A DNA stretch of 64,000 bases from positions 928,001 through 992,000 of the forward strand of contig CAWCKJ010000004.1 in assembly GCA_963796105.1 (NCBI GenBank), read 5' to 3'. The number at the start of each line of letters is the position of its first letter. The stretch's first letter is position 1. Made by a program: the position numbers and the translations under genes. Below are positions 24,748 to 47,957 of the stretch, in pieces. Under the pieces are notes generated by a model that was not told where the DNA came from, did not search any database, and was given only the letters and a program-made list of their open reading frames with translations. The DNA comes from a candidate division FCPU426 bacterium (lineage in GTDB: Bacteria > Oederibacteriota > Muellerivitia > Muellerivitales > Muellerivitaceae).

Positions 24748-27204
24748 TTGAAGTTCAAATTACTAAGGTTTTTCAAACGGATAGCCCCCCTGTTTTTGAT
24801 GGGATCGTCAGGGACTGTTTATTCCGGGGTTTGTCCTAACATCATCGTCGACCAGTTCGGGTACCAAACCGCCGCGCCCAAGCTCGTCATCTTCTCCCAG
24901 CCAGTCTCTGGCATCGGAAGTCCTTCCACTTTCACCCCGGGGCCGGCCTTCAACCTCATCAACGCCTCCGCCGGCGCCACGGTTTTTACCGGAAGCGTCT
25001 CCCAATGGGGCGCTGGGGGAGTGCACACCCAATCGGGGGACATGGCTTGGCAGGGGGATTTTTCAACCTACACCACTCCCGGCTTTTACTATATCCAAGT
25101 TCCCGGGGGGTCCAATCCGGGAAGCCAGTCCTATCATTTCCAAATCAACGACGCCGTATACAACGGCGTAGTGACAGCCTCCCAGCGGATGTTTTTCTAC
25201 CAACGCTGCGGGGGGGATATAACCCCTGCCAACGGGGGAAGCTGGAACCACGCCGCTTGCCACGAGGGGGAGGGCCAGGACCTTTCAGCGGACCTTTGGG
25301 ACAACAACGCGGACCAAGGCGCTGGAACGACGCTGAACGTCCACGGCGGATGGCATGACGCGGGGGATTACGGCAAATATGTCACCTTCGCCCACAGCAC
25401 ACTCTGGTACCTTCTGCACTCGGTGGAATGGTTTCCCGCGGGCTACACGGACAACACCAACATCCCGGAATCGGGAAACGGGGTTCCGGACATGCTGGAC
25501 GAGGCGAAGTGGGAATTGGACTGGATGCTCCGCATGCAGCGCTCCGACGGGGCACTTTATTCCATGGTGGGTTACGGCCCCAACGGCAGTAATAACCAAG
25601 GAAATCCCGCCAACGACACCATTCAGCGCTTCTACACCAACGTTTCCACCACCGCCACGGCCACGGGCGCCATGGCCTTCGCCCTCGGCTCGCGCGTATT
25701 CAAGAATTATCCACCCTGCGCCTCCTACGCCGTGACCTTGAAAAACGCGGCTGTTTCGGCCTGGGGATACCTGGCGGCCAACCCCAACCCTGTCACGTTC
25801 AATTCCACGGGCATCTCCAGCGCCAACGCGAACCAGGGGCCGGGGTGGGACGCTGAAGCGAGGGTTGGCGCCGCGGCGGAACTTTTCGCCCTGACGGGAA
25901 ACACCGCCTATCAGGCCTATTTCGACAGCTATTACAACTCGGCCTCGGTGACGGATAGCGGGGGATTCCAGCCCGTTCACAATCCCCCCAGGCCCTACGG
26001 CGATTGGTTCGATCCAAGCCTTTCGGAACCCCTCGAGCTGGGGATGATTTCCTACTGCCTGGCGCCGGGCGCCACCGCCGCCGTGGTTGCCTCCATTCAG
26101 AACGCCTTGACGAATGAAATCGAGTGGAACATCATGCCGAACAACCCCGGGACCAGCGCGAGCGGGGACCCCTATATGGGTTATATGTTTGACGGCCATT
26201 ACTGCTGGGGCTCCAACCAGATGAAGGCTTCCTGGGGGAACCAGCTTTTGTTCGCGGTGAAAATCGGCGCGAATCCTTCCCGGAACACCGCTTATACCAA
26301 CCAGGCCGAGGAGTACCTCCATTACTTTCACGGGCGCAATCCCTTGAACTGGGTTTACTTGACCAACATGGGACCCAAGGGCGCCAACCTGGGGGCCAGC
26401 CAGAGTGTCATGTCCATTTTCCATAGCTGGTTCTGGCAGGGAACGATTTACGACGGCAATACCGGCGTCTCCGCCATCGGGCCCGCGCCCGGCATCCTGC
26501 CGGGAGGGCCGAACCAATTTTACGTACCGGACGCGTCTTTCAACGGCACGATCTCGCCTCCCCAGAATGAGCCGGAAATGAAATCCTACAAGGATTGGGG
26601 AAATGGATGGCCGCAGGACGCCTGGGAAGTCACCGAGCCGGACCAAGGTTACCAGGGTCATTACCAGTTCTTGGTTTCGGCCTTCGCGGTTTCTGTTTCC
26701 TCGGCGGGAACCCCAAGCAAAACCATAACCCCGACACCTTCTTCCACCTTAACGCCCACGAGCACCCTGACTTCAACCACAACTATCACGCCTACTAATA
26801 TTCCGACCGCTACTCCGACTTTCACCAACACGCCCACTTCAACGCTTTCCCCAACACCGACGATGACCATGACCTTTACGCCCGCATTGACGAATACACC
26901 CACACCCACCAATACTTCCGGGCTTTCGATTGTGAGAGTATGGGATCCCTATCCCAATCCAGTACGGGGAGCCGGGCCTGTTACCTTCAACGTCCAAGGT
27001 CCACCGGGCGTCACCCTTACCTGGGGAGTTTTCACGACAGCCCTTAGAAAAATAAACGGCGGAACCAAGGTTGTTTCCGGAGATGGTTTTTTCACTTGGG
27101 CTTTGAGCGACAAGGATGGAAGGCCCGTCGCCAACGGGTTGTACTATTTTGCCGTTACTTCCCCCATAGGCCGGCAAATTTTCAAGATTTTAGTCCTGCC
27201 CTAA
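24748..27204 (+). CDS. Secreted glycoside hydrolase family 9 with N-terminal Ig-like domain, Thr/Pro linker and C-terminal sorting-like domain
   Basis: 'IVDQFGY', 'FFYQRCG', 'GGWHDAGDY' catalytic motif, 'WGSN', 'HYFHGRNP'; CTD 'YPNP...ANGLY...KILVL'. Confidence 0.88.
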   Translation: MKFKLLRFFKRIAPLFLMGSSGTVYSGVCPNIIVDQFGYQTAAPKLVIFSQPVSGIGSPSTFTPGPAFNLINASAGATVFTGSVSQWGAGGVHTQSGDMAWQGDFSTYTTPGFYYIQVPGGSNPGSQSYHFQINDAVYNGVVTASQRMFFYQRCGGDITPANGGSWNHAACHEGEGQDLSADLWDNNADQGAGTTLNVHGGWHDAGDYGKYVTFAHSTLWYLLHSVEWFPAGYTDNTNIPESGNGVPDMLDEAKWELDWMLRMQRSDGALYSMVGYGPNGSNNQGNPANDTIQRFYTNVSTTATATGAMAFALGSRVFKNYPPCASYAVTLKNAAVSAWGYLAANPNPVTFNSTGISSANANQGPGWDAEARVGAAAELFALTGNTAYQAYFDSYYNSASVTDSGGFQPVHNPPRPYGDWFDPSLSEPLELGMISYCLAPGATAAVVASIQNALTNEIEWNIMPNNPGTSASGDPYMGYMFDGHYCWGSNQMKASWGNQLLFAVKIGANPSRNTAYTNQAEEYLHYFHGRNPLNWVYLTNMGPKGANLGASQSVMSIFHSWFWQGTIYDGNTGVSAIGPAPGILPGGPNQFYVPDASFNGTISPPQNEPEMKSYKDWGNGWPQDAWEVTEPDQGYQGHYQFLVSAFAVSVSSAGTPSKTITPTPSSTLTPTSTLTSTTTITPTNIPTATPTFTNTPTSTLSPTPTMTMTFTPALTNTPTPTNTSGLSIVRVWDPYPNPVRGAGPVTFNVQGPPGVTLTWGVFTTALRKINGGTKVVSGDGFFTWALSDKDGRPVANGLYYFAVTSPIGRQIFKILVLP

Positions 27205-27467
27205 ATAGCTCTTTCCTCAAACTCAAATACTCCATTAAATTTTCCCGAGAATTTACAAATCCGGTCTGAAAAAGCGTTTTATCTTTGATTATTTCCGAAG
27301 TTTTCCCGGTTTTTATCCGGTGGGGGTTGTATTTCTTTGGGGGGATGAGTGATAAAATTACATTCTCGGTAAATATCATTTGAAATGAAAACGTTTTTAT
27401 GCCCGTAAATACGGTTAATCTAAGAAATCTTAATTTGGAAAATTTGGCGTAACCGGTTACTGAATAA

Positions 27468-30400
27468 TTGAAAACCATGAATTTTAAAATACACTCCAAA
27501 AGAAATATAAAACACCGAAATTGGATCCAAAAAGAAACCATCTTTTCGGTATTTGTTTTTTTATGGATGGGTTACATGATCCCGGTCCATGGCCAAGTCA
27601 TCGGGACCGGGACGGGAATCTGCGCCCAATATTACGCGGGCGAGAATTTCAATACTTTTTACTTCAATGAGACCGACCCGACCATCAACTCCAATTGGCC
27701 GGGGAACGGGGCAGCCCCCTCCAATGGATCGGTCACCATCCCCAACGGCCCCTTTTCAGTCAAGTGGTACGGATCGGTCCAGGCCCAGTATTCGGAACCT
27801 TATACTTTTTGTACCGACACGGACGACGGAGGAAGGCTTTGGGTCAATGGGGTCCAGCTAGTCAACGCTTGGGTGGACCAGGCGGCCACCTCCAATTGTG
27901 GTACCGTCACACTCGTGGCGGGACAATACTACAACATCGAGATGGATTATTACGAGAACGGCACTGGGCCGGCCAGCGCCCAGCTTTTCTGGTCCTCTCC
28001 CAGCACCCCTCAAACCATCATTCCCTCCACCCAGCTTTACTGCTCCTGCCTGCAGACCACCAAAACGGTCAGTCCAGGCGTGGTGGCGGACGGGGGATCT
28101 GTCACCTATATCCTAACGACCAGCAATTGCGGAAGCGCCCTGAGCAACGCCCAGGTTTGGGACACCCTGCCCTCCAATGTCACCTATGGAAGCAGCAATC
28201 CGCCCCCGTCAGTGAATTCCAATCCCTATTTCGTCTGGAACATCGGGTCCATGGCGGCCAGCCAGACCTACTCCGTGACGATCATCGCCACCGTGAACGC
28301 CGGAGTCCCGAACGGGACTTCGGTGACCAACGTGGCCAACGACCTGGCCACCGGCGTGGCGCCCTACCAGTCGGCCCCTGCCGTCTTCCGTGTTTTCAAC
28401 CCAGGCACCGAATTCGTCAAGTCCGCCAATCCCACCATGGTGTCGCCAGGCGGGCCCGTCACCTATAACCTCGTCTTCTTCAACCCAGCCCCGGCTCCCG
28501 TCACGGGATTCGCCCTGCAAGTGGACGACGGAGGACAGGCCTTCGGGGCCTACCGGATGAACACGGACTTCAACATCATCAACAATAGCGGGGCCGCGGT
28601 GAATATCTCCGATTTCACCATCAAGATGTGGATTTCGGACAATATCACTCCCAGTCAATTGGGCGACGGGGTTTATTACGGCGGGGCCGCCACGGATAAC
28701 AGCTGGAACGGTCCGGCGGTGGGAATCACGACCACGGCCCTGTCCTCCCCCATCACTTACCCGGCCAACCGGCAGGCCGCAATGGAAATCGACATTAAGA
28801 CCACCACCGCCGACACCTTGGCCAATGGGGTCACTTGGGGGGGAATCGAGACCTACCTCGCCCCGACCAGCATCCCCCTGCAGAACTATCCCAATTATTA
28901 CAGCCAGGACCCCGGGGCCGCCTACCAGCCGGGCCAGAATTACGGTTATTCCCTTTATTACCAGGGACAGCTGGTTTACGGGACATGCGCGCCCGGATAT
29001 ATCGAGCCCCTGGATCCCATTCCCACGAACGTCACCTATGTGGGAAGCAACCTGGGAGGGGCGGTCAGCAATAACAGCGTGTATTGGATGACCACTTGCC
29101 TTTACGGCCAGCAGTCCGTGACCTACACCTGGTGGGGGACAGTATCCTCGTCCGCCACGGCGGGGCAAATCATTCCCAATCAGGCGACCTTCAATGACGT
29201 CAATGTGGACAACCAGATTCCCCAGGGGCTTTCCAACAACGCCAATGTGACTGTCATCGGAACTCTTACCCCTACACCCACCGGGACAAGATCCCCGACC
29301 CCCACGCCCACGAGAACCCCGACCCCCACGGTGACGCCCACTCCCACCAACACCCCTACCCCGACGCCAACTCCCACGAAAACGAACACACCCACGCCCA
29401 CCCCAACTCCGACTCCCACTCCTACCAACACTCCCACGCCAACCCCGACCAACACGCCTACTCGGACCCCCACTCCTACACCGACGAATACCCCGACGCC
29501 CACCCCGACGAATACGCCTACCCGGACTCCGACTCCCACTCCGACCAATACTCCCACGCCCACCCCCACTCCTACACCGACGAATACCCCGACTCCAACC
29601 CCGACGAATACACCTACCCGGACTCCGACTCCCACTCCGACCAATACTCCCACGCCTACCCCCACCCCCACTCCATCTCCTACGCCGACCAACACGCCCA
29701 CACGGACCCCCACACCCACTCCGACTTCCACCCCAACACCCACGCCAACCCCCACTCCCACGAATACCCCGACCAGAACTCCGACCCCGACTCCGACGAC
29801 TACTCCCACCCCCACCCCAACGCCAAGCCCGACGATGACGCCGACCCGAACTCCCACTCCCACACCCACTACGACCCCTACACCCACGCCGACTCTCACA
29901 CTGACCCCAACACCTACGAACACCCCGACGCCTACGCCGACCAGGACCCCGACGCCTACTCCCACACCCACGCCGACTAATACCCCCACTAACACACCCA
30001 CCCCCACCCCGACAACAACCCCGACACCCACGCCGACCAGGACCCCCACTCCCACACCGACTAACACGCCTACCCCCACTCCTACCACAACCCCCACTCC
30101 GACACCTACCAATACCCCGACGAGGACGCCGACACCCACCCCGACTCATACGCCGACCACCACGCCTACGCCTACTCCGACACCCACACCCACGATCACA
30201 CCCACACCTACCCCCAGCCCGACCGGGACGCAATCGCCCACGAACACGCCGACCGTGACCCCCACCCGAACCCCGACCCCGACTCCGACGAATACCCCTA
30301 CCATCACCCCTACTCCCACGCCGACCAATACTCCCACGCGAACGCCTACGCCAACCCCAACTCCGACCCCAACGACCACGCCTACGAATACGCCAACGAA

Positions 30401-33400
30401 TACGCCCACTCGCACACCCACGAACACGCCTACGCCTACCCCCACGACGACTTCTTCAAATACCGCGACCAACACGCCCACGCGCACGCCGACTCCCACC
30501 CCGACGCCTACCCCCACCACGACCCCTACGCCGACACCCACGAATACACCGACTTTAACCCCGACCCCGACCCGCACCAACACCCCCACAACAACCCCGA
30601 CCCCGACGCCGACAAATACTCCTACTTTGACCCCCACGCCGACTCCCAGCCCGACCGGGACGACCTCGCCCTCGAATACCCCGACCAATAGTCCCACGCG
30701 CACCCCGACTCCCACCCCCACCCCAACACCCACTATCACCCCTACTCCGACGCCCACGAATACCCCGACCTCGACCCCTACTCCGACGCGCACCAGCACT
30801 CCCACTACCACTCCGAGCCCGACCATGACAAATACCCCTACCTTGACCCCGACGCCGACCCCCAGCCCGACGGGAACCACCTCACCCACTAATACGCCGA
30901 CCAACACGTCCACTCGCACGCCGACGCCTACCCCGACCTCGACACCCACCATCACCGTGACTTCCACCCCCACAACCACCCCCACCCTGACTGCCACCCC
31001 GACGATGACGCCGACTCCCACCACAACCACCACTTCGACGCCGACGAATACCCTGACTTTAACGCCCACTTTCACTTCGACGCCCACCCCCACTACGACC
31101 ACCACGTCCACCGCCACGAATACGCCCAGCCTGACACCCACCCAGACGCCGACCCGAACCCCGACCACGACCACCACTTCCACGCCGACACCTTCGCCCA
31201 CCCTGACACCCACCTCGACCGCGACGCCCACACCTACGACTACAGTCACATGGACCCTGACGAATACGGCGACACTCACTCCCACCGCGACCCCGACACC
31301 TACGCCGACCACGACCACCACTTCCACGCCGACACCTTCACCCACGCTGACACCCACTTCAACGCCGACACCCACGCCGACCACCACCGTCACAGCCACA
31401 CTGACGAATACAATGACACTGACTCCCACCTCGACTCCGACTCATACTTCAACCATTACCGTCACCTCCACTTTGACCAATACATCCACCCTGTCCCCCT
31501 CTTCGACCCCGACCCCTACTTCGACCATCACAGTCACGGCAACCCTAACCAACACCCAAACCCTCACCCCCACTTCGACCCCAACCCCCACTTCGACCAT
31601 TACGGTCACGGCCACTTTGACTAATACACAAACGACTACTCCCTCGCCGACTTCCTCTCCTACCCCGACCATCACAGTCACGGCAACCCTAACCAACACG
31701 CAAACCCTCACCCCCACTTCAACCCCGACCCCCACTTCGACCATTACGATCACGGCTACATTGACCAACACGCAAACCACTACCCCTTCGCCGACGCCCA
31801 CGCCCACCTTGACGATCACGGTTACGGCCACCTTGACCAATACCATCACCCTGACTCTGACGGAAACTTCCACCCGCACGGATACCATTACTGTGACAGT
31901 CACGCCCACAAACACCTTGACTATGACTCTGACCGTGACAAATACGAATACCGTGACATACTCGCCGACCCAGACATCGACCCCGACGGTGACAGGCACT
32001 TCCACGAACACGCCGACCGTGACGGATACCCGCACCCCGACGAACACATTCACGGTGACCAACACACCGACTTCCACGAATACCCCGACAGTCACGAACA
32101 GTCCGACCAATAGCCCAACGGTCACAAACACCTACACGCTCACAAATACTCCCACTGTGACAAACACGCCAACGGTGACCAATACCCCGACCCAGACCTA
32201 TACCCCGACGGTGACAGGCACTCCCACGAACACGCCGACCGTGACGGATACCCGCACCCCGACGAACACATTCACGGTGACCAACACACCGACTTCCACG
32301 AATACCCCGACAGTCACGAACAGTCCGACCAATAGCCCGACGGTCACAAACACCTACACGCCCACAAATACTCCCACTGTGACAAACACGCCAACCGTGA
32401 CTAATACCCCGACCCAGACTTCCACCCCAACAGTCACAAACACGCCGACGAATACCCCGACCGTGACGGATACCCGCACGCCGACGAACACATTCACTAT
32501 GACTAACACGCCCACAGTCACGAACACACCGACCCAGACCTTCAGCCTGACAGTCACGAACAGTCCGACCAATAGCCCGACGGTCACAAACACCTACACG
32601 CCCACAAATACTCCCACCGTGACTAACACGCCAACAGTGACCAATACCGCGACCCAAACGTACACTCCGACTGTGACGAATACGCCAACGAACAGCCCGA
32701 CTGCGACGAATAGCTTCACCCCAACCAATAGCTTCACGGTCACCAACACCTTTACACCTACGAATACACCTACTGTCACGAACACCCCCACCGAGACCTT
32801 TACTCCGACAGAGACCAATACGCCGACCAATACCCCGACGGTCACAAACACCTACACGCCCACAAATACTCCCACCGTGACTAACACGCCAACAGTGACC
32901 AATACCGCGACCCAAACGTACACTCCGACTGTGACGAATACGCCGACGAACAGCCCGACTGCGACGAATAGCTTCACCCCAACCAATAGCTTCACGGTCA
33001 CCAACACCTTTACACCTACGAATACACCCACGGTCACGAACACCCCCACCGAGACCTTTACTCCGACAGAGACCAATACGCCGACCAATACCCCAACGGT
33101 CACAAACACCTACACGCCCACAAATACTCCCACTGTGACTAACACGCCAACAGTGACCAATACCGCGACCCTAACATTCACTCCAACTGTGACGAATACG
33201 CCGACGAACAGCCCGACTGCGACGAATAGCTTCACCCCAACCAATAGCTTCACGGTCACCAACACCTTTACACCTACGAATACACCTACTGTCACGAACA
33301 CCCCCACCGAGACCTTTACTCCGACAGAGACCAATACGCCGACGAATACCCGTACGCCGACGAACACATTCACTATGACTAACACGCCCACAGTCACGAA

Positions 33401-34343
33401 CACACCCACCCAGACCTTCACCCCAACGGCGACAAGCACCTCCACTAACAGCCCAACAGCCACGAACACTTTCACCCAAACGAACACACCCACTACCACC
33501 AACACCTGGACCCAGACGAATACGGCGACGATGACGAATACCCCTACTAACACCCCGACTGTGACGAATTCCGCGACCCAAACATTCTCCCCGACCGTGA
33601 CAAACACTCCGACCAACACCCTGACCGCCACGGACACCTTCACGCAAACGAACACTCATACCCCGACTAATACGTCCACGATCACTGATACGCCCACCCT
33701 GACCTTCACCCCGACCGTCACCCCAACCCCCACGAATACCCCGACACCGACCCTGACCAGGACCGTGACCAACACTCCCACGGATTCGATGACGCCTACG
33801 GCATCCCTCACCGCTACGCCTACGGCTTCGCCAACCCTTACTAAAACGCCGACGGTCACGCGGACTCCGACCTTGACCCGCACTCCAACGAAGACTTCCA
33901 CGCCCACTTCCACCCGGACGCCTACACCGACCCGCACCCCCACGAGGACCCCGACACCCACGAAGACCCCCACGCCCACGGTGACGGCTTCCTATACCCC
34001 GACTTTGACCCCGACCCCGACTATCACCAACACGCCGGGGGCGACCTGGACGCCGGAAACCGACATATTCACGGTGACCAAGAACTTGTTCCAGGGCGGG
34101 GAACCGGTCTTCATCACGGTCGGGACCAGCCAATATCCGGGGAACCTGGAATTGAGCGTTTACAACTCGGCGGGGGAACACATCAAGACGCTGGTGGACA
34201 GGTACCTGACGGCGCCTTACACGGGGACCGTTTATTGGGACGGGACCAACAAATTCGGGGACAAGGTCGCGAGCGGGGTTTACATCTTCTACCTGGTGGA
34301 GCCCTTTGACCGCAAAGTGAAGCGGATCATCTTCATCAAGTAG
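27468..34343 (+). CDS. Giant secreted protein: PA14, DUF11-like Ig domains, CBM3-like insert, ~1600-aa Thr/Pro stalk, FlgD-Ig/T9SS-CTD-like end
   Basis: PA14 'FSVKWYG...[11 protein letters not shown]...YNIEMDYYE'; DUF11 '[21 protein letters not shown]'; CTD '[23 protein letters not shown]'; alternative start ATG 27477. Confidence 0.85.
31981..32420 (+). repeat. Two tandem ~222-bp near-identical units inside the Thr/Pro stalk
   Basis: ccccgacggtgacaggcact recurs at 31981 and 32203. Confidence 0.8.
32581..33350 (+). repeat. Three tandem ~258-bp near-identical units inside the Thr/Pro stalk
   Basis: cggtcacaaacacctacacgccc recurs at 32581, 32839, 33097; identical antisense ORFs in track. Confidence 0.88.
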
Positions 34344-34437
34344 CCAAGAAGTCCGTCGATATTTCTCCGATCAACCCCGGCAAAATTCCTGTTAACAGAT
34401 GTTCCTTTGCCCATTAACATGGGGTAAAAGGTCATAA

Positions 34438-36030
34438 ATGAATTCTTATAAGCGAAATCCATTTTTAAAAACCCGGGTGATGAACCTCCTCATGGCCGCG
34501 GGCCTGGCGATGGCCTATATTTCCCAGCCTGCCTGGGCTGACGCTTCCAAGACGGAAGAGGGGAAGGACCCCCAATGGGAAGCCTTGGACCCCGGAATGA
34601 TGCCGGTGGTGAGGGTATTTTACGGGACGGACCGGATGCCCATCCCCGGGGGAACAGGCGCCCAATACGGGAACGGAAAAGGGGACGGTCAAATCCACTA
34701 TGGCAAGGCCGAGGCGGTTTTAGCCGTCAACTACCGGCGGAATCCTTCCAAGTACAGTAGCTGGCTGGGTTTCCAGCCGGGCAAACCGGACAGCCCTTCC
34801 AAAGTGGGGTTCCAGGAAATCCCGGAAGGGGCCTTCAAGCGGGAGATCGGGAAGGATAAATCCAAGGCCACTTTTATTTTCATTCACGGTTATAACAACA
34901 GTTTCCAGAGCGCCGCCTTCCGGACGGCGAAAATCGCCTATGACCTTCAACTCCAGGGCACGCCCCTCATGTACAGCTGGCCTTCCGCCAATTCCTTGTT
35001 TGGATTCGGCCAGGACCTGGAGGGGGCCGATAGCCCCGAATCGGTGGGCCATTGCGCGGACTTCCTTAGGCTGGTGTTACGGCACTCGGCCTCCGGAAAG
35101 GTGAATCTCCTGGCCCACAGCATGGGAAGCAGGATCCTCTGCAAGGCCCTCTTGAAAATGGACCGGCGGGACTTTCACAGGCTTGGCTCCGTCATTCTGA
35201 TCGCCCCGGAGATCGATGTGAGGGATTTCAAGGAGATGTATTTCGGAAAGGGCGGCCTGCTCGGGAAATGCGGCAGGAAGCACCCCTTCCTGGTTTACGC
35301 CTCGGGCCAGGATTACGTCCTTCTCACGGCTGACGCCCTCGGCGGGGGCAAGCGCCTGGGCCAGGGCGGGAAACACGCTCCCGCGATTGAGGGGCTGACC
35401 ACCATCGACGCCACCCAAGTCTCCGTGGATTGGGGTCTCGGCCATGAGCTGGACCACCATGACGGCGTCATCAACGACCTTTACCTGTACCTGAACCAGG
35501 GCCTGCCGGAATCCCGGAGGCTACTGACCCTTAGGCCCAAGCGCGGCGAGTCCACTTACGAGCTGTTCGACGGGGTCCAGGAAATCCGGAAACCCTGGAA
35601 CTATTCCTACGCCGTGGGGGGGCAGGCGGGACTCCAGGACGAGTCCGTCAAGGTGAGCTGGTTTTGCCTGGGGAATTACCTCCAGCCCTGGCTGGCCTTG
35701 AACCGGGGATTCCTCAACCCCGAGCTGGACCTCAGGTTGAACCTGTCAGATGGGGAATGGCGGCCCTATCTCCAAGCTGGGATCGCTTCTTACCGGACCA
35801 GTAACTTGGACACCCTAGCCGGCGCCGGGGCCCTGAGGTTCGGCGGGGGATTGGAGAGGATTTTCGAGACGGGGTGGGCTGTGGGGCTGGAAATCGACGG
35901 GATGGATAAGTTGTGGCCCTCGGGGGCCATCGCCCAGGACGCGGTATTGGATTCACTCTTCAACAACAGGAACTTCCCATGGGACCAGATCCACCTTCAA
36001 TTGACGAAGTATTTCGACATTGATATATGA
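34438..36030 (+). CDS. Exported alpha/beta hydrolase (DUF900-like esterase) with C-terminal beta-strand-rich domain
   Basis: 'VFYGTDR', 'FIFIHGYNNSF', 'YSWPS', nucleophile 'AHSMG'. Confidence 0.8.
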   Translation: MNSYKRNPFLKTRVMNLLMAAGLAMAYISQPAWADASKTEEGKDPQWEALDPGMMPVVRVFYGTDRMPIPGGTGAQYGNGKGDGQIHYGKAEAVLAVNYRRNPSKYSSWLGFQPGKPDSPSKVGFQEIPEGAFKREIGKDKSKATFIFIHGYNNSFQSAAFRTAKIAYDLQLQGTPLMYSWPSANSLFGFGQDLEGADSPESVGHCADFLRLVLRHSASGKVNLLAHSMGSRILCKALLKMDRRDFHRLGSVILIAPEIDVRDFKEMYFGKGGLLGKCGRKHPFLVYASGQDYVLLTADALGGGKRLGQGGKHAPAIEGLTTIDATQVSVDWGLGHELDHHDGVINDLYLYLNQGLPESRRLLTLRPKRGESTYELFDGVQEIRKPWNYSYAVGGQAGLQDESVKVSWFCLGNYLQPWLALNRGFLNPELDLRLNLSDGEWRPYLQAGIASYRTSNLDTLAGAGALRFGGGLERIFETGWAVGLEIDGMDKLWPSGAIAQDAVLDSLFNNRNFPWDQIHLQLTKYFDIDI

Positions 36031-38033: not shown

Positions 38034-39116
38034 TCAATTCCAAATCACATCCAATGTAGCCGTGCCTTTCACCGAAAGCCTCATGACGATTCCCTCGTTG
38101 TCGGCGTAACCCCCTATCACCTTGAAGGATTTCACTTTGGTTTTGAGGCTGGTATAGCGGCTGAGGGGCCGGTTCAAGGCCTTGTTCATGATTGCCTTAT
38201 ACTCATCCAATTTATAGCCGATGGGGAGCTTGGTGATCTGCCGGAGGGCCTTCTTGAAATCCGATTTGTGCATCCAATCGGCGATTTCAAGCAAGAGGTC
38301 ACTGGACTTGATGTCGTAATCCAGGTCCGGAAAGTCGAACATCCGGCGTTTCGGGTGGTAATGGGGGGTGCCCTTCAAATAAACCGTCAGCCTGGCCGGC
38401 TTTCCCGAGAGGTTGATCACGGGGTTGTAGTGCAATTTCGCCTCCGCGACCACCTTGCCTCCCGATCCGTAAAAGCGGATCCCGTCAAGGGTCAGCTTGC
38501 TGCTTCCCGTGCCGGGCAAAACCCTGCGGGTGAGTTTCTGCCGGGGGTCCCGGAAAAAGGCGTTGATTTCCTTATAACTGATGCGGGTATTGCTCGTGGC
38601 CTGGAAGACGGGGGGGCCGGGCTTGAAGGCCTGGAGAGGCGGCATTTTCCTGGGGGCGGATTCTGGTTTGGGCCCGAAGACGATCTCGGGCCTGGCGTTC
38701 ATTTCCAGGATCGTGTGAAGGGTCGAGGCCTTCTTGCGGTCGGTCCTCATCCTCCCGACGCTGAGGGTCTCGGGCCGGATCAAGAGCCAGATGCCCTTAT
38801 CCAAGAAGATGGGGTCCTGCATTTCCTCCCAGAGGTCCGAGAGGTGGGAGTTCAATTGGAGTCCGGGCAGGATCACCAGGTAAGGCAGCAAGGGCTTCAG
38901 CTCACCCTTGAAAAAGTTGGTGACGTGCCGGAAGAGGCCGCCTCCTTTGGGAAAGACGATCTCCACCGGCAGGCGCACCAGGGCTGGCTTGACCGCGGGG
39001 AAGCTCCGGGCCGGGGCCGGGAGCACTTTCACGAAATGGGAGGGGACCGTGGCGCACCCGGTCGAGAGGGTTAAAAGGACCGATAGAAAAACCAGCCGGA
39101 CAGCGCTATTCGGCAT
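38034..39116 (-). CDS. Lipoprotein, DUF4403-like
   Basis: Lipobox 'LSTGC'; 'LWEEMQDPI.L..GIWLLIRP', 'VYLKGTP.Y','DLDYDI'. Confidence 0.6.
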   Translation of the reverse strand: MPNSAVRLVFLSVLLTLSTGCATVPSHFVKVLPAPARSFPAVKPALVRLPVEIVFPKGGGLFRHVTNFFKGELKPLLPYLVILPGLQLNSHLSDLWEEMQDPIFLDKGIWLLIRPETLSVGRMRTDRKKASTLHTILEMNARPEIVFGPKPESAPRKMPPLQAFKPGPPVFQATSNTRISYKEINAFFRDPRQKLTRRVLPGTGSSKLTLDGIRFYGSGGKVVAEAKLHYNPVINLSGKPARLTVYLKGTPHYHPKRRMFDFPDLDYDIKSSDLLLEIADWMHKSDFKKALRQITKLPIGYKLDEYKAIMNKALNRPLSRYTSLKTKVKSFKVIGGYADNEGIVMRLSVKGTATLDVIWN

Positions 39117-39270
39117 AACCTTTTCCCCCGTCGTTTCACCGCATGAACAACCCTGTTAATGATTGGGACCCTGTACTCCAGCCTTGCCAAAGTAGCATAA
39201 TGCGATAGGTTTTTGCATGAGGTACTTTTAGCACCTATCTCAAAATACCTACTAAGCGGACGATAGCGGA

Positions 39271-39419
39271 TTCCCCCCTTTGAAAAAGGGGGGAGGGGGG
39301 TATTAGCTTTTGTTGTGTAACACCCAGAGGCTAACTTCCCCTCAATCCCCCTCTTTCATACTGTTCCTCATATAAATTTAAAAAATGAGAACAGCATAGT
39401 GCTTTAGCACAGAGGGGGA
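39271..39419. repeat. REP-like palindromic repeat, right (inverted) copy with ~50-bp insertion
   Basis: Reverse complement matches 37667-37741 (gaaagaggggga...ggggaagttagcct...ctaatacccccc..cctttttcaaagggg). Confidence 0.7.
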
Positions 39420-39513
39420 GGGGATCTATTGTTCGTGGTTCGCAGAATAAGCAAAATTGATTTTGATATAAGTCCTGACATTTTACGATTTATATCACTT
39501 GAGGGAGTTTTCC

Positions 39514-39975
39514 ATGTCAGCTCGACGCGAATTGAGGTTCAAGACCCTGGATGACGCCAGGCGGGAATTGGCCCTTTTGGAGAAGGGTCCAGTGGCCACG
39601 ACTGGGAACTGGAACTATTTCCAGATTCTGACCCATTGCGCCACCTCCCTGGAGGGAACGATGAAGGGGGTGAAGAGGGAAATGTCCTGGTGGAGAAGAC
39701 ACGTCTCGGGGCCCCTGGGGGCCAGAAAAGTGATGTCCCAGGGTTTTATCCCAGCCGGAGTCAACGCCGTCATGAATCCGACTTTTGAGAAGCTTGAGGG
39801 GGACGAGAAAGAGGCCCTGGCCCGTTTGAGGAAAGCCATGGAGGATTTTGAGAAATTCGAGGGCGTCTTGAGCGAGCATCCAAGGTTCGGCCCGCTTAAA
39901 AAGAAGAAATGGGTCCATTTCCACGCCATGCATTTGGCGAACCACCTGGGATTCGCCAAACTCAAGGAATCATAG
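39514..39975 (+). CDS. DUF1569/DinB-like protein
   Basis: 'RRELRFKTLDD', 'GNWN..QILTHCA', 'HPRFG.L....W..FH..HL.NHL.F'. Confidence 0.75.
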   Translation: MSARRELRFKTLDDARRELALLEKGPVATTGNWNYFQILTHCATSLEGTMKGVKREMSWWRRHVSGPLGARKVMSQGFIPAGVNAVMNPTFEKLEGDEKEALARLRKAMEDFEKFEGVLSEHPRFGPLKKKKWVHFHAMHLANHLGFAKLKES

Positions 39976-40481
39976 CCATTCAAGGTATACAAAATCCAGG
40001 AAACAAAGGTAAATAAAATCAGATATTTTTGTTTCTAAAAGGCGTTAAGCAAAATCAAATCTTTTGCCACGGATTCAGGGGATACAGGGGATGGCTATAA
40101 ATCAATTCAATATAAACGACAATTTCACCCAGATTTATTTGAAACCACAGAATACAGGGTTATAAAACCAACAACTAAATTTGGAAATTTGTTTTAGATC
40201 ATAACAAGAGCAGTGCTCTTGCGCCCATTGGGCGTTATGGTCAAGCCTGAGGACCTTGGAAAAATTAATTTTTCCATTGACCGTCAGCTGGACCATAGAA
40301 CGTGATCGAAATGCGTTTTAAATCCCATGTATCCCATGCATCTGTGGCTAGAGTCGATTAAGGACAGGTGTTTAAAGGAATAAGTAACGCCAGTCGATAA
40401 ATTCGGATTAGGTTTTCATCCTTAATTGCCTATATTTATTGATCATTTGAGGAAGCCTGCCGTTCCTTGCATAATAAGGCC

Positions 40482-42299
40482 ATGCGCCAGGCCAAATTCC
40501 CCCAGGGTTTCGTCTCTCCCACCGTCCAGATCTTCCGGGCTTTCGAGGCGATCTTTAACAACTTCCGCTACTACACAGGGATGTCCTGCTACCTGGTCCC
40601 CAAGGACAACCCGGACCAATGGATCTGCCTCCAGCCCTCCCCGAACAATTACGGAATCAACGAATTCGAGGACAGGTTCGGGCCCCGCCTGGACCGCGCC
40701 AAGTACAACCAGAGGAATTTCAAGAAGGCAGCCAGGAGCAAGCGCGCGGTTTGTTCCACCCATTCGGGATTCTTTGATTTTTGCGTCCCGGTCTTGAACA
40801 GGGGCAAGTGCATCGGTTTCATCGTATCGGGTTATTTCACTAAAAAGGTCGCTGACCGCGGGGAACTGGAGCGCCAATGGGAAATATGGACCGGCAAGAA
40901 GCCCCTTTCGGATGATACGGATTTCAAACGCTTCGTCCTGAACGCCTTGAACATGCCCCTCTTGGACGGACCCCAAGCAAACGCGCACCGGGAGCTCCTC
41001 GAGATGGCGGCCTCGCTCATTTCCGGCGAGGGAAACCCCGAGGGAATCATCTTCCGGGCCACGGATCTGAACCACAAGGTCTTCACGAAATGGAAACTGA
41101 ACAAGGGCTGGCCCATGAAGGCCCTGGGATTGGATTTGCCCCCCTCGGACCGGTCCTGGACGGACAAGGAATTCGGCGAGACCGACAGGATCGTCACCAA
41201 GATCAAGAGGAAGCCGGTGATGGGCATGGCCCTTTTGTTGGTGGAGGAGCCGGACGATTACCTGGACGAGGTGGACGCCATGATCCGGCAGAAGCGCCTC
41301 GAGCGGGAGGGCTTTTTCCACGCCCAACGGCTGGGCGAGACGGTGGCTTTCCCCCTGTGGGACGAGGGCCTGGTGTTCCTCACCTCGCCCCGCCCCGGGT
41401 CCAACCCGACCCAGGCCCGGCTTCAATTGAGGGACAAGGCCAGGTCCATCGCGGAAAAGATGGGGAAGCTTTTCGGGACCCGCGCCCTGGTCGGCGTCGG
41501 GTCCATAATGCCTGGGGCCGAGTCGCTGAATCCCTCCTGCCAGGAGGCCTTCCAAGCCCTGCAATGGGCCATCCACCAGGACAAGGACATTATTTTTTAC
41601 GAGGAGATCGAGCCGCTGGAAACCAAACCGCCTGGGAAGGGAAAGCCCTGGCCCGACGCCCAGGCCCTGGTGGAGGCCTGCCTGAGGGGATCGAGGGCCG
41701 AGAAGGCGTTCGTGCTGGACCATTACCTCGGCGACGTCCTGCGCCAGACCGCCGAGCGCCCCGACCTGGTGCGGGTGCACCTCATCGACGCCCTTTCGCT
41801 TTACGCCTCGTCGCTGGAAAAGGCGCTGCTTCTTCCGTCCGGGCGCCTCTCAAGCTTCCTCAGGGAATGGGTCCCCCGCTTGGAAAAACTGAGGGCCACC
41901 CATGAACTCTTCGGAACTTTCAAGACCGCGGTCCAGGTGTTCACGGAATTCTCGAAGGACCCGCCGGCCGCGGAGAGGGAGGCCACCGTCCAGGAACTGA
42001 AGGCCTACGTGGCCGAGCACTTCCGGTCGGCCTTGAGGGCGGACAGCGCCGCCAGGCAGATGGGCCTCTCCCGGGCCACCTTCTACCGCCTGGTCCGGAA
42101 ATGGATCGGGATGGGGTTCAACGAATACGTCAAGAAGGTCCGGCTGGAGGAGGCGAAGCGCCTTTTGCGCACCGGCCGTGACAGCGTCGCGCGGGTCGCC
42201 CAGGAATGCGGCTTTTCCTCCAGCGGTTATTTCATCTGGGTTTTCAAGGAAGCCACGAAGCGGACACCCCAGCAGTACCGGAACAACCCCGACGCATAG
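40482..42299 (+). CDS. AraC-family regulator with N-terminal PocR-like sensor domain
   Basis: 'CSTHSGFFDFCVPV..G..IGFIVSG'; C-terminal 'RLEEAKRLL...VAQECGFSSSGYF..VFKE..TPQQYR'. Confidence 0.85.
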   Translation: MRQAKFPQGFVSPTVQIFRAFEAIFNNFRYYTGMSCYLVPKDNPDQWICLQPSPNNYGINEFEDRFGPRLDRAKYNQRNFKKAARSKRAVCSTHSGFFDFCVPVLNRGKCIGFIVSGYFTKKVADRGELERQWEIWTGKKPLSDDTDFKRFVLNALNMPLLDGPQANAHRELLEMAASLISGEGNPEGIIFRATDLNHKVFTKWKLNKGWPMKALGLDLPPSDRSWTDKEFGETDRIVTKIKRKPVMGMALLLVEEPDDYLDEVDAMIRQKRLEREGFFHAQRLGETVAFPLWDEGLVFLTSPRPGSNPTQARLQLRDKARSIAEKMGKLFGTRALVGVGSIMPGAESLNPSCQEAFQALQWAIHQDKDIIFYEEIEPLETKPPGKGKPWPDAQALVEACLRGSRAEKAFVLDHYLGDVLRQTAERPDLVRVHLIDALSLYASSLEKALLLPSGRLSSFLREWVPRLEKLRATHELFGTFKTAVQVFTEFSKDPPAAEREATVQELKAYVAEHFRSALRADSAARQMGLSRATFYRLVRKWIGMGFNEYVKKVRLEEAKRLLRTGRDSVARVAQECGFSSSGYFIWVFKEATKRTPQQYRNNPDA

Positions 42300-42800
42300 C
42301 GCCGGATAAGCAAACCGGCCAAAACCTTTAAATTGGCCATAAATTCAGCTTAGGCTGATACTAAATCGTCATTCTAATGAATCATTATCTGAATTCCTCA
42401 ATTCCCTCCGGTGGTAGTCTTAGAGTTACTAACAAGAATTAAAGTCCACCACGGGTTTCTTCGAAACCACTGGGGCACAGCAAGGAAAAGATTTAAAAAT
42501 TCAAAGGATTTTAATTGTGTCTTTGTGAACTGCCGAAGGCAGTCTGTGGTTAAAGCTTTTTTGTTGGAAGTTTTAAATAAAAAAAATGCCCAATTCTTGG
42601 AAGAGCGTGGAACCCTTGGGCGGTCCCTCGCCGTGAAGGTCCTATTCATCCCAAATGAAAAAGTGGAAGGAATAGCCGGGGAGCGGGGGACGCTTGAAAC
42701 CGCTTCCAAGGGGATTTTTTCCGTAAAAAGTTTCACCGTTCATAAAAACATTTTCATTCCGGCTCGTCCGCCGGTTTTAAAGAGCGATGGGGAGCCTGCC

Positions 42801-45800
42801 GTGACTGTTCGCGAAAGAATCATTCCTATTTTCCTTTCCCTGCTTCTGGGCCTATTCCTATGCGCCATTCCAACGGGGAACGCCTGGGCCCAGGCCGGTT
42901 CCTGCACGGTGGTCAGCGCCACTCTTACATGGGCCACGGATGACGAGGGTTATATTTTCGTGAACGGACAGTATCCCGTCAGCTGTTACTGGCAGAACTG
43001 CTGGGAGGGGGCCGATTGCGGCAATTCCGCCGTCAGCTGCCAGACCCCCATGACGATCTGCAATGGGGACTGCGCGGGCTTCTTCAACAACACCGGCGAC
43101 AACATACTCGCGGTTTACGGTTGGGCCTCGGACACGGGGTGGAACGGTTCCTCGTGGCTGTTGAGCCTGACTTTAGGGGGGGCCGGATGCACCATGACCA
43201 CCCAATACGTGGAGTCGGGAGGACCATGCGTGGTCGCGAAATACATTTTTAACGACACGAACGCCAGCGGCTATAACCTGCCAACCACCCTGCAGGGGGG
43301 AGGGTCCGGCGTTTACGCCGGCTGGCTCACGGCTGGTTTCAACGACAACGGATGGGTGGGACCCTATTCTGACCCCGTGACGGCTGATTGGGGTTACAAC
43401 TGGTTTCCCATTCCCAATCCGGCTTCGCCAGGTACGTATGTGCCTTGGACCTGGGGCGTTTACGGTTTTAACTACACCACGACCGCGGGGGACGGATACC
43501 TCTATCGAGAGCACTTTACCATCGGCACGAATTCTTGTTCCAACACGCCGGGCCCGACGGTGACTCCGATATTCACCTTGACGAAAACCAACACCCCGAA
43601 CCTGACCCTCACCGCCACGCCAACTTACACCTATACCTATACTAATAGCCCGACCCCGACCAGGACTCCCACGCCCACCAACACACCCACGATTACGCCC
43701 ACTCCCACCCCAACCAATACACCCACGAGGACGCCCACACCCACCCCGACTCCCACGCCCACCAACACTCCGACCAGGACGCCTACTCCGACCCCCACGA
43801 ATACACCGACCAATACGCCAACGCCCACGCCGACGAATACCCCGACACCCACTCCATCGCCAACCCCAACCAGGACGCCAACCCCAACACCCACCAATTC
43901 ACCGACCCCAACACCCACGAATACGCCGACCCGGACCCCAACACCCACCCCAACGAATACCCCGACTAATACCCCAACTCCCACGCCCACTCCTACACCT
44001 TCCCCGACACCCACCCGTACTCCCACACCGACTCCGACAAACACCCCCACCCCAACTCCAACCAACACCCCGACTAGAACCCCGACACCTACTCCCACGA
44101 ACACCCCGACCCCTACCCCCAGCAACACACCCACCCCTACGCCGACCAATACGCCCACACCAACTCCTACGAGGACCCCAACACTAACTCCCACCAACAC
44201 CCCGACACCATCGCCCACCCCAACCCCAACTAGGACTCCAACACCCACACCCACAACTACTCCCACGCCGACTCCCACTAACACACCTACCTCCACTCCG
44301 ACTGTAACGCCTACTCCCACTCCAACCAGGACCCCGACCCCAACACCAACGAATACTCCAACTCCCACTCCCACGAACACCCCGACTCCAACCCCCACTA
44401 CGACGCCAACACCGACCCCAACCAGGACTCCTACTCCCACGCCTACTAACACTCCGACACCCACTCCGACCACAACCCCGACCCCCACCCCCACGAATAC
44501 TCCCACACCGACCCCGACAAGAACGCCTACTCCGACACCGACAACCACTCCCACCCCGACTCCGACCAATACACCCACTCCGACACCTACTAACACGCCG
44601 ACTCCAACCCCGACCCGAACCCCGACGAATACTCCTACCCTGACACCCACCAATACACCCACAAATACGCCGACGCCCACACCCACGACAACTCCAACGC
44701 CTACCCCGACGAGAACTCCCACTCCCACGTCTACGAATACACCGACTCCAACACCGACAGCCACTCCGACACCCACTCCTACCAATACGCCCACAAGAAC
44801 ACCCACCTCCACTCCGACTCCCACGCCGACCACAACCCCTACTCCAACCCCGACCCCGACTCCCACCATTACCCCAACACCCACTAATAGCCCCACGGGA
44901 ACGCAGTCGCCAACGAACACGCCGACGATTACTCCGACCAAGACTCCGACTCCGACTCCCACCAACACTCCAACGATCACGCCCACGCCTACCAATACCC
45001 CCACAAGGACTCCGACTCCTACACCGACTAATACGCCTACTCCCACTCCAACAACGACCCCTACCCCAACACCCACTCCAACAACGACGCCTACTCCCAC
45101 ACCCACTAATACGCCCACCCCAACCCCCACGAGGACGCCCACTCCCACTCCAACGACCACCCCGACCCCTACACCCACCAATACCCCGACTCCTACTCCC
45201 ACGAATACTCCTACACTCACTCCTACAACTACCCCGAGCCCTACTCCAACGAGAACCCCGACGCCTACCCCTACGAATACTCCTACACCCACCCCCACGA
45301 CCACCCCGACACCTACTCCGACTAGGACACCGACACCCACTCCTACCTCCACGAATACCCCTACACCCACCACAACCCCGACTCCGACCCCCACCCACAC
45401 GCCAACCATCACACCAACTCCAACCAATACGCCTACAGGAACTCAGTCTCCCACGAATACTCCTACCATCACCCCGACCAAGACCCCGACGCCTACTCCT
45501 ACACCCACTCCGACTGTGACACCTACTCCAACGCCCACGAATACCCCAACGAACACGCCTACCAATACGCCGACGCCAACACCTACCACGACTCCCACGC
45601 CGACCCCAACGAATACACCCACAAGGACTCCGACGAATACCCCGACCCCTACTCCTACGACCACATCCACCCCTACGCCGACTTCTACACCTACTTCTTC
45701 CCCAACTAATACCCCGACACCCACCCCAACCACAACGCCGACACCTACTCCAACCAACACTCCTACGGTTACCCCCACTCCGACAAACACGCCGACGGGG

Positions 45801-47957
45801 ACGACATCTCCTACCAATACGCCCACGGTCACGCCCACGAATACGCCTTCCCCAACAGCTACCAGTACTCCAACTACAACGCCGACACCTACACCTACCG
45901 CTACACCCACCGCAACACCTACGAACACGTCGACCCATACACCCACCACCACCCCGACCCCTACTTACACATCTACTCCCACACAAACACCCACTCCTAC
46001 TCCAACCGATACCTCCACTGACACGCCTCTTTTCACCTTTACAAACACCAATACGCCCACAGACACATCAACCCCCACTAACACCAACACACCTACGAAC
46101 ACGCCGACTAATACTCCCACTCCAACACCCACTAATACCCCGACACCGACATTCACGGACACGCCGACATCCACGCCAACACCTACTCCAACCGATACCT
46201 CCACTGACACGCCTCTTTTCACCTATACAAACACCAATACCCCTACCGACACTTCCACCCCCACTAACACCAACACACCCACGAACACGCCGACTAATAC
46301 CCCCACTCCAACACCCACTAACACTCCCACCAACACCAACACTCCAACGGAGACTTCCACGCCCACGAATACCTATAGCCCCACTAACACGCCAACCAAT
46401 ACCCCGACCCCTACTCCCACCAATACCCTGACCAACACCAACACGCCCACTAATACCCCCACCGCTACCAACAGCTCTACTCCCACCAAGACTTATACGG
46501 CCACCAATACCCCCACCAATACCAACACCCCGACTAACACCAATACTCCTACCAATACGCCTACTCCTACTCCCACCAGGACGCCTACTAACACTTCCAC
46601 TCCCACGAATACGCTTACAGCCACGAATACACCCACTAATACCAATACCCTGACACCTACCCCCACGGCGACCTTCACTCCCACCCCCACGCCTGCCGCG
46701 GTATTGGCCTTGCAGAAACAGGAGTCGGAATCAACAGGTTCCTCGGGGGATATGGTGACCTATACCTTGAATGTGAATGTTTCTAACGCCAACGCTCCCG
46801 GGGTAGTGGTGCAGGACCAACTGCCTCCCAACTGCACTTTCACGGCCTTCGGGGTCTCACCAGCAGGAACATCGGCCGTAACCACCGTTTCAGGCGGGGT
46901 GACCATGATGAACTGGACATTGCCCACCCTTATCCCTGGAAGCTACCAATTGACTTATACAGTCTCGATTAACAGCTTCACGCCCGCGGGACCCATTGTG
47001 AACTGCGCGGTCTTAAACTATCCGGGAATCTCACCATTGAGTTCCTGTGCCACATTAATGGTGACAGGGAGCTACACGGTGAAGATCGGGGTGTATAACG
47101 AGGCGGGGGAACTGGTCAAGACCCTGTTGGTGACCCAATATTCCCAGCCCTTGGTGGACCTGCAGTTGAAGAACGGGGATCTGATTAATGGAATGAATGA
47201 CCCCATCCTGATATATGACCAGAACACCCAGATCACGGTGTGGAACGGGACGGACCAGAACGGGAACCCAGTGCCCAATGGTGATTATTACGTGAAAGTG
47301 GACAATGTCGATTCCTTCGGGGTGGATAAGAGCGTGGTATTGAACGTGGTGGTGAGCAGGTCGTTGGAGAAGGTGACGATCGACATTTACAACGAGGCTG
47401 GGGAGATCGTGGACACGCTCTACAGCGTGGTGGAGGACCCTCAAGGGACGGTGATTACGGGGGTGAAGCTGTCAGGGACGGTGTTGGAGCCGGGATCGCC
47501 GACAGACGGGAACCTGATTATTACGACAAATAACGGTGTCACAGCCATCTGGACAGGGTACGCTTCAAGCGGGGCGGTGGTACCCAACGGGAAATACTTC
47601 ATCGAGGTGCACTCCACCGATGGAAAAGGCGGGGAGACGGTGATCGTGACATCGGTGATGGTGCTGAACAACCCGAAACAGACGGTGCCGAAAGTGTGGG
47701 CTTATCCGAACCCCTTAACCGGTGGTTTCAGCCAGGTGGAGTTCCAAGGATTTGCGACAAACGTGAACCTGACGGTGAGGATTTACGACCTGTCGGGAGA
47801 GCTGGTGACGGAACTCAAAGGCGCCGGGGGAACGAGCCGGGTGACCTGGAACGCCGCGGGAATCGCCAGCGGGCTCTACATCGCCAAGGTGGAACAGAAG
47901 GACCTGACAGGGAAGATCATTGCCAAGCAGACAATCAAGGTTTTGGTGGGGCAATAA
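42801..47957 (+). CDS. Giant secreted protein: Cys-rich lectin-like head, ~1050-aa Thr/Pro stalk, DUF11-like domain, tandem FlgD-Ig domains and T9SS-CTD-like end
   Basis: GTG 42801 after GGGGAG gives signal peptide ending 'AWA-Q'; '[10 protein letters not shown]', 'W..GFND.GW'; CTD '[23 protein letters not shown]'. Confidence 0.85.

Follow-up and report, generated by a model that had tools for sequence, protein, structure and literature searches.

The window analysed here, 64,000 nucleotides of contig CAWCKJ010000004.1 (positions 928,001 to 992,000, assembly GCA_963796105.1) from a candidate division FCPU426 bacterium, encodes a GH9 cellulase-family protein and two giant proteins that share one layout: a signal peptide, a head, a stalk rich in threonine and proline, and a homologous C-terminal domain (CTD, also called tail or tag below) of about 90 residues. 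Our analysis indicates that these three proteins are probably cargo of a reduced pathway resembling a type IX secretion system (T9SS), with an SprA pore and PorV/PorQ-like carriers and no recognisable GldKLMN motor or PorU sortase. A preliminary description of the window had recognised the common layout, and the open reading frames (ORFs) lie where it had placed them; the stalks, which it had put at ~70, ~1600 and ~1050 residues, measure 71, 1607 and 1037 (Table 1).

Signal peptides were assigned by eye from the translations. In the GH9 protein, the signal peptide is followed by a CelD_N Ig domain (residues 30-120), the GH9 domain (residues 138-637), a short stalk and the CTD. The GH9 domain is matched with an E-value of 4e-55 in a Pfam scan and carries a DAGD motif at 204 and the Glu of an EVTEP motif at 627. 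An RNA look-up gave no holder for this gene, which speaks neither way. Giant protein 1 has a PA14 domain, a DUF11 domain, a weak CBM3-like domain (E = 0.01 in Pfam, 0.19 for PDB code 2XBT) and a further DUF11 domain ahead of its stalk and CTD. The frame of giant protein 2 is open from 42411, and the GTG start at 42801 is preceded by GGGGAG. Its Cys-containing head matched no Pfam family at E = 0.05, and its stalk leads into a DUF11 domain, FlgD_ig-like repeats and the CTD. Of the carbohydrate-active or carbohydrate-binding heads proposed for all three proteins, that of giant protein 2 is thus not supported by a domain match.

All three stalks consist of 44-50% Thr and 18-30% Pro, with Thr at alternate residues (a Thr-X pattern), and that of giant protein 1 is built of degenerate tandem repeats with periods of 24-258 nucleotides and 62-95% matches. 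In composition, they fit the mucin-like label of the preliminary description. We considered and rejected an assembly artefact as their source: the frames are open, the repeats have diverged, equally long tagged frames occur in a second genome of the genus, and stalks of at least 300 residues are present in 56 of the 123 tagged proteins of this genome.

Table 1. Stalked proteins of the window and their parts (positions are those of the window)
Feature	Position	Strand	Basis
GH9 cellulase-family protein, 818 residues	24748..27204	+	ORF and Pfam
GH9 protein, Thr/Pro linker, 71 residues	26707..26919	+	Composition
GH9 protein, C-terminal domain	26920..27201	+	AlphaFold2 (AF2) model; predicted docking on PorV/PorQ-like barrel
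Giant protein 1, 2291 residues	27468..34343	+	ORF and Pfam
Giant protein 1, Thr/Pro stalk, 1607 residues	29247..34067	+	Composition, repeat analysis
Giant protein 1, C-terminal domain	34062..34340	+	Weak PorU/PorZ/FlgD_ig/CHU_C matches
Giant protein 2, 1718 residues	42801..47957	+	ORF and Pfam
Giant protein 2, Thr/Pro stalk, 1037 residues	43602..46712	+	Composition, repeat analysis
Giant protein 2, C-terminal domain	47679..47954	+	Passes TIGR04183 and PF18962
Predicted lipoprotein, 66-residue Thr/Pro stalk and LRR domain, without CTD	57483..58643	-	Comparison case
Predicted lipoprotein, 118-residue Thr/Pro stalk and NHL propeller, without CTD	60810..62492	+	Comparison case

The three tails align pairwise at 27-31% identity. 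A hidden Markov model seeded with them and iterated across the C-terminal 130 residues of 20,170 ORFs settled at 123 proteins, and the genome-wide count that the preliminary description had called for therefore stands at 123 ORFs. About seven of these resemble FlgD-Ig domains from short proteins without a stalk, which puts the true number of tags at ~115-123. The E-values of the GH9, giant 1 and giant 2 tails (1e-33, 5e-40 and 2e-21) arise partly by construction, as these tails seeded the profile. None of 2460 shuffled C-termini was matched, and on full-length ORFs the profile returned 120 terminal versus 15 internal matches. Of the 123 proteins, 98 have stalks of at least 40 residues, and the genes for the set take up 9% of the genome. 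In 101 of the 123 tails, Lys or Arg occupies the sixth position from the C-terminus; type A CTDs carry a near-invariant Lys at that position, according to the accessible portions of PMC10994853 and PMC11285876. As the preliminary description had stated, the two stalked lipoproteins of the window (57483 and 60810) lack the tail, and neither scores with the tail profile. Genome-wide, 68 Thr/Pro-stalk proteins are without the tag; 27 of them match a crude lipobox pattern against a background of 9%, and further ones resemble lipoproteins by eye, with LRR, NHL or CBM-like heads.

The window tails represent three separate classes of 39, 27 and 13 members. Of the motif previously proposed for them, the Trp and the (A/S)(N/S)G(L/V)Y element are invariant; YPNP occurs in the GH9 protein and giant protein 2 only, and giant protein 1 reads TKNLF instead. 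The class of the latter, with 27 members in the genome, follows the pattern FTVTKN...WDG...ASGVY...KRIIFIK. In the suggested scan with the T9SS tail models TIGR04183 and PF18962 and with FlgD_ig, the giant 2 tail passes both tail models (39.9 bits for TIGR04183, cut-off 23). Sub-threshold matches to FlgD_ig, CHU_C, PorU and PorZ are seen for the tails of the GH9 protein and giant protein 1; of 20 paralogous GH9-class tails, 6 pass TIGR04183. A profile of 26 tails, drawn mostly from the GH9 class, was compared with the PDB and found PorU (3e-7) and PorZ (2e-6), then the translocon-bound type A CTDs of 8GLK and 8GLJ, ahead of FlgD (0.09). An AF2 model of the GH9 tail, with a predicted local distance difference test (pLDDT) value of 94.6, ranks PorU and PorZ at the top (TM-scores of 0.73 and 0.65) with modest E-values of 6e-5 and 2e-4, and FlgD follows at ranks 35 and 41. 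The tails thus align with each other, the GH9 tail is predicted to fold like the PorU and PorZ CTDs, and by profile and predicted fold the family is nearest to these.

A single SprA-like ORF of 2017 residues is present on contig C3, among lpxA, lpxC, lptFG and gap genes and flanked by lptFG/lpxA/lpxD and by an Fn3-rich tagged protein. As a whole protein it passes TIGR04189 (207.6 versus a cut-off of 200). A 30-sequence profile of its family matches Flavobacterium johnsoniae SprA in the PDB at 1e-47, a match that only the profile achieved: the single sequence found nothing in the PDB and, as the query of a genome scan, returned zero loci. An hhalign comparison with 20 SprA proteins of the type found in the Fibrobacteres-Chlorobi-Bacteroidetes (FCB) group gave a probability of 100 over 1048 columns, restricted to the N-terminal two-thirds, at 19% identity. 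A model of the last 1150 residues contains ~26 consecutive long strands, and a search with it placed four SprA entries on top (E = 1e-35 to 4e-29; next match 7e-6). The Fn3-rich tagged protein directly after the gene (1618 residues; L007:9357-14210, G000:C3:218356-223212) is a candidate for a dedicated partner of the pore; among 15 loci from close relatives, 9 have a tagged gene at the same place. By eye, a skp-like gene lies 7 kb upstream of the SprA-like gene, within the usual lpxD cluster.

Nineteen genes of the PorV/PorQ family were identified, 16 of them above the cut-off of NF033709. PorP/SprF (TIGR03519) reaches at best 17 bits against a cut-off of 90.55 in the genome, and CHU_C stays below its cut-off. 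Ten of the 19 barrel genes come directly after a tagged gene, their start touching or overlapping its stop (gap of 0 to -28 nucleotides), versus 3% expected (binomial 6e-11, for paralogues that are not independent). At least 435 residues and C-terminal extensions, which by eye include Fn3-, OmpA- and TPR-like domains, are seen in 13 of the 19. At one end of the flagellar gene cluster, a pair of barrel genes lies directly upstream of flgF/flgG-like rod genes; at the opposite end, another pair follows a tagged stalk protein (G000:C3:423845-427589 and C3:401381-404943).

The three genes of the window have no barrel gene beside them. The genome also encodes a stand-alone barrel of 318 residues, which has orthologues with 53-83% identity in 20 of the 29 family loci retrieved and for whose profile PorV is the best PDB match (3e-23). 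When this barrel was combined with the GH9 tail in ESMFold2, the prediction scored 0.66, and the highest of three controls 0.00. At least 87% of contacts agree between runs, the partner has a pLDDT of at least 80, and Lys89, the terminal Lys, lies in the interface. The docking mark applied is reached by 116 of 157 solved pairs and 2 of 215 mismatched pairs. Because PorV-CTD complexes have already been solved, the predicted complex may reflect likeness to them and not binding.

The genome is a metagenome-type assembly in 16 contigs, with flagellar genes recognisable by eye. On sequence evidence, the host is placed with Goldbacteria and Firestonebacteria, outside the FCB group, and the genome is not that of an ordinary Bacteroidota or FCB member with a canonical T9SS. 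In the accessible part of PMC7031533, FCPU426 is likewise assigned to Goldbacteria, whose nearest neighbours there are Firestonebacteria and Elusimicrobia. In a genome scan, SprA relatives appeared in records with the titles Ca. Goldiibacteriota, Ca. Firestonebacteria, Elusimicrobiota and Spirochaetia; other records, titled simply as bacteria, hold the closest relatives, at 44-57% identity. The locus with a 53%-identical relative belongs to the phylum of a Ca. Goldiibacteriota-titled record, where a Firestonebacteria-titled record is also listed. Of 99 genomes of this phylum, 92 carry SprA-like genes (58 of the 60 near-complete ones) and all 99 have tagged tails; the PorV family occurs in all 31 genomes of the host's family. 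A sample from the phylum of an Elusimicrobia-titled record has SprA-like genes in 58 of 61 genomes.

In a FastTree phylogeny of 86 SprA proteins (317 columns, rooted at the midpoint, without loci whose frames are truncated), the 21 FCB-type sequences form one clade with a support of 1.0, apart from the 65 others, which are sorted by lineage. Because the root is arbitrary and the sampling is biased towards relatives of the query and Bacteroidota, the tree argues against recent transfer and gives no order of events. SprA genes from Clostridia- and Ignavibacteria-titled records (L031, L040, L057, L058, L076, L034) branch inside the Elusimicrobiota group; these titles, and that of L062, which lies outside the tree, are probably wrong.

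The machinery search that the preliminary description had outlined succeeded for the SprA homologue and the carrier barrels, and did not detect the PorU sortase or GldL, GldM and GldN. Among the proteins of the genome, the PorU and PorZ models match CTD ends only, with no PorU sortase or PorZ body, and the C25 peptidase family PF01364 is found in none of the 31 family genomes, in a search that was positive in 8 of the 99 phylum genomes. GldM was not detected in the genome or in any of 99 phylum genomes, nor was GldN in 99, in searches for which no positive control gave a signal. GldL was likewise not detected in the genome, with one weak match in 98 phylum genomes. The GldK model returned four FGE-type proteins only (at most 63 bits, cut-off 350), and a GldK cysteine-loop motif had no match. 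A sample around an Ignavibacteria-titled record (0 of 41 for GldM) shares 40 members with the Elusimicrobia-centred list and so does not serve as a control. A Parabacteroides record with sprA had no GldM, the gene probably lying elsewhere in that genome. As no control for GldM or GldN gave a signal, the motor is to be called not detected, which falls short of proof of absence.

The non-stalk parts of ~100 of the 123 cargo proteins were scanned with Pfam at E = 1e-6. Glycoside hydrolase domains were found in 19 cargo proteins (five GH5, four GH8, three GH9, three GH12, and one each of GH30, GH44, GH62 and GH116), and ~8 others have CBM, PA14, malectin, lectin or expansin-like domains only, so that ~27 of the 100 look carbohydrate-related. 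The other cargo comprises S8 or kumamolisin-type proteases (six), IgGFc-binding proteins (four), and propellers or Fn3 proteins, and roughly one third of the scanned set has no Pfam match. Neither cohesin nor dockerin domains were reported in the Pfam scans of the three window proteins and the ~100 cargo proteins, the part of the proteome covered, in line with the non-cellulosomal character proposed earlier. The proposed polysaccharide-capture apparatus is thus supported in part. Judged from domain content, polysaccharide use would be a main but not the sole purpose of a general export route in a cellulolytic organism.

The best reading of these data is that the genome encodes what appears to be the outer-membrane half of a T9SS, namely pore, carriers and tagged cargo, with neither the motor nor the sortase of Bacteroidota. 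The earlier proposal of a C-terminal sorting domain in a genome outside Bacteroidota is thereby upheld, in that the tail matches the T9SS type and a matching pore and carriers are encoded. By analogy with Flavobacterium, Sec would move the cargo to the periplasm, where the folded tag would enter the SprA-like barrel and bind to the outer loops of a carrier that sits docked at the lateral gate of this barrel; carrier and cargo would then exit sideways. Cargo without a neighbouring carrier gene, such as the three proteins of the window, may use the shared stand-alone barrel. As no sortase was found, the tag probably stays uncut, as on PorU and PorZ. Long-stalked cargo might then be held by its tag on the carrier while the stalk pushes the head outward, over at most ~500 nm for giant protein 1 and ~320 nm for giant protein 2 (fully extended, 0.31 nm per residue); by this analogy we give such retention at the surface roughly even chances. 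Since no Gld parts were seen, release would be spontaneous or powered by something unrecognised, and our guess is that it uses no Gld-type track.

Several points weigh against this interpretation. The GH9 and giant 1 tails have no TIGR04183 match at E = 0.01. The half-model of the SprA-like protein has a predicted TM-score (pTM) of 0.59 and a TM-score of 0.46 to SprA. The stand-alone barrel scores higher with PorQ (100 bits) than with PorV (75 bits), and neither equivalog cut-off is reached. With 123 cargo proteins and 19 barrels, most cargo would have no private anchor. None of 14 control genomes passed a Gld cut-off, and the Gld models were built on Bacteroidota, so that diverged homologues may escape them. 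In F. johnsoniae, loading is energy-free and release from SprA needs energy, as given in the accessible text of PMC10994853, and a system without a motor therefore needs another explanation of release. Finally, export, binding and surface display in this organism are predictions from sequence and models.

The energy demand of release also speaks for a full T9SS that is energised, with a motor and ring too diverged to be recognised or with another inner-membrane motor in their place, for example an ExbBD/TonB set. We consider this unlikely. It draws support from the lack of a positive control in the Gld searches and from four ExbB/TolQ-type genes that the genome carries besides MotA. However, models of SprA, PorV and the CTD still find their homologues, whereas GldL, GldM and GldN give nothing of note across ~99 genomes, the GldK matches are of the FGE type, and no conserved candidate motor gene was seen around 80 SprA loci. 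By eye, three of the ExbB genes lie beside TonB-receptor-like genes and none beside the SprA gene; ExbBD/TonB was rejected as the motor, as no linkage to the SprA-like gene was seen.

Less probable again is that cargo is exported and then released while the carriers recycle, the Thr/Pro tracts being linkers or self-assembling fibres; this shares the export step with the reduced pathway and differs in the final location only. The sharing of 19 barrels by 123 cargo proteins would fit it, as would the mere 71-residue linker of the GH9 protein, and type A cargo is released or re-anchored in Bacteroidota (PMC10994853, in its accessible part). Against it stand the missing sortase for cutting the tag and the proximity of the tails to those of PorU and PorZ, whose CTDs stay uncleaved according to the available text of PMC11285876. 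The order of head, stalk and tag, with stalks of more than 1000 residues, would fit a tether at the tag end, and Goldbacteria cells have been captured bound to cellulose, as reported in the accessible part of PMC7031533.

We regard it as very improbable that the tail is an ordinary FlgD-like Ig cap without a sorting role and that the SprA-like barrel serves, for example, envelope biogenesis near lptFG. FlgD_ig is the best Pfam match for two of the three tails, about seven family members resemble FlgD-Ig domains as noted above, and lptF/lptG adjoin the SprA-like gene in 53 of 80 loci. Yet the tail is terminal, has a conserved final Lys and is closer to PorU and PorZ than to FlgD, tail genes are tightly coupled to PorV-family genes, and a tagged gene lies inside the retrieved flank in 31 of the 80 SprA loci. 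Bacteroidota contamination of the bin or recent transfer into it, for which the fragmented metagenome-type assembly might speak, is effectively refuted by a contamination of 0.32%, the setting of the SprA-like gene among envelope genes and gap, its spread through both phyla, its separation from FCB SprA in the tree, and the absence of SusD from the genome in a search whose control was positive.

Beyond the reduced pathway of this genome, we suggest tentatively, and with rather less than even confidence, that SprA pore, carriers and tag are an ancient export-and-display system of Goldbacteria, Firestonebacteria and Elusimicrobiota, with no Gld motor or sortase and with the uncut tag on carriers. 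If so, the module would predate the link to gliding, and the motor and sortase of Bacteroidota would be later additions. The lineage would also devote 9% of the genome to a coat in which enzymes and adhesins are borne on stalks that measure hundreds of nanometres.

The interval 24748-47957, which had been treated as a single unit, is not one operon, because unrelated genes sit inside it: a DUF900 hydrolase, AHSA1, DUF4403 and DUF1569 genes and an AraC/PocR regulator lie between the giant genes. The first of these (34438-36030, 94 bp past giant protein 1) encodes an alpha/beta hydrolase with a C-terminal beta-barrel-like region (weak OMP_b-brl match). The AraC-family regulator with a PocR sensor domain (40467-42299) lies on the same strand 500 bp upstream of giant protein 2 and possibly regulates it. 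The DUF11, FlgD_ig-repeat and tail cassette of giant protein 2 (46713-47957) is near-identical in ~12 giant proteins with differing heads, which suggests head swapping onto a fixed base. A family of 18 Cys-rich heads without Pfam match, starting with AQCTP, sits on stalks of 600-1300 residues; 14 of the 18 are tagged, five lie in tandem on C11 (G000:C11:5386-35216), and the family is also found on C6 and C4 (L158 and L182 are example loci). An alignment of the giant 2 head with this family reached only E = 0.12 once giant 2 was excluded, and the family matched a fungal lectin at E = 0.03 over 26 positions only; a lectin function is not supported. By eye, hpnC/hpnD/hpnE-like genes (4112-7213, minus strand) suggest hopanoid or squalene synthesis, and insertion sequence (IS) transposases lie at 12576-13756, 48570-49750, 53443-54612, 56012-56920 and 59129-60559. 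A second copy of the NHL/SGNH gene (13677-15544) is interrupted by an IS3-type element, an identical copy of which lies, by eye, directly after giant protein 2.

The literature has so far drawn the range of the T9SS more narrowly. In their accessible parts, PMC11285876 reports its genes as absent from non-FCB phyla, PMC12611786 calls SprA FCB-specific, 10.1101/031039 finds none outside Bacteroidetes, and PMC12635249 infers an origin of the T9SS from gliding. Term searches of the accessible text of 10.1101/765248 (on Elusimicrobia) and PMC7323717 gave nothing relevant, and our literature search, with most subscription papers outside its reach, found no paper on SprA, PorV or the CTD in Goldbacteria or Elusimicrobiota. 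Since curated models already label some of the proteins, the system may be noted in papers outside the literature searched. That two non-FCB phyla conserve a set of SprA, carrier and tag in which a motor is not detectable calls the stated range of the T9SS into question. With this module the origin becomes testable, and whether carriers depend on a motor to leave SprA can be asked in a naturally minimal system. The cellulases of Goldbacteria, cellulose degraders that have received little study, would likely be exported by it.

Compared with known systems, the putative module most resembles the T9SS outer-membrane module of Bacteroidota as seen in F. johnsoniae (PDB codes 6H3I, 8GL6, 8GL8, 8GLJ and 8GLK), with a Sec signal, an Ig-like tag with terminal Lys, a very large SprA-family barrel ending in Phe and FadL-like carriers. 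It differs in its non-FCB host, an SprA shorter by ~350 residues, 19 carrier-family barrels, and the lack of detected GldL, GldM, GldN, PorU and PorZ body. Tagged cargo, SprA and, at the family level, a PorV barrel are thus present and sortase and PorZ are not; the system would work like the outer-membrane half of a T9SS, and on these sequence criteria we do not file it as a canonical one. The PorU-PorV and PorZ-PorQ pairs of Porphyromonas gingivalis, in which an uncleaved CTD sits on a barrel, are similar in that their CTDs are nearest to the GH9-class tail and the stand-alone barrel belongs to the PorV/PorQ family. Here, however, the tag is carried by enzymes and adhesin-like cargo, with no C25 sortase or PorZ propellers. 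A cargo gene followed by a dedicated barrel gene, of which we count ten cases, recalls the type B pair SprB-SprF described in the accessible part of PMC12618676, but the barrels score as PorV/PorQ and only weakly as PorP/SprF, and the tails are type A-like. The cellulases with T9SS tags in Fibrobacter succinogenes and Cytophaga hutchinsonii likewise pair non-cellulosomal GH5, GH8 and GH9 enzymes with a C-terminal tag (PMC6851124, accessible part); those hosts belong to the FCB group and the Fibrobacter tags are reported to be cleaved, whereas here stalks reach 1600 residues and no sortase was found. Closest in lineage is Ca. Cellulosimonas argentiregionis of the Goldbacteria, for which PMC7031533 describes GH5, 8, 9 and 44 enzymes, CBMs and cellulose-bound cells; in its accessible text, T9SS and FlgD have zero occurrences and the export route is not addressed, and it is for such a cellulolytic relative that a tag, pore and carrier set like the one described here may provide that route.

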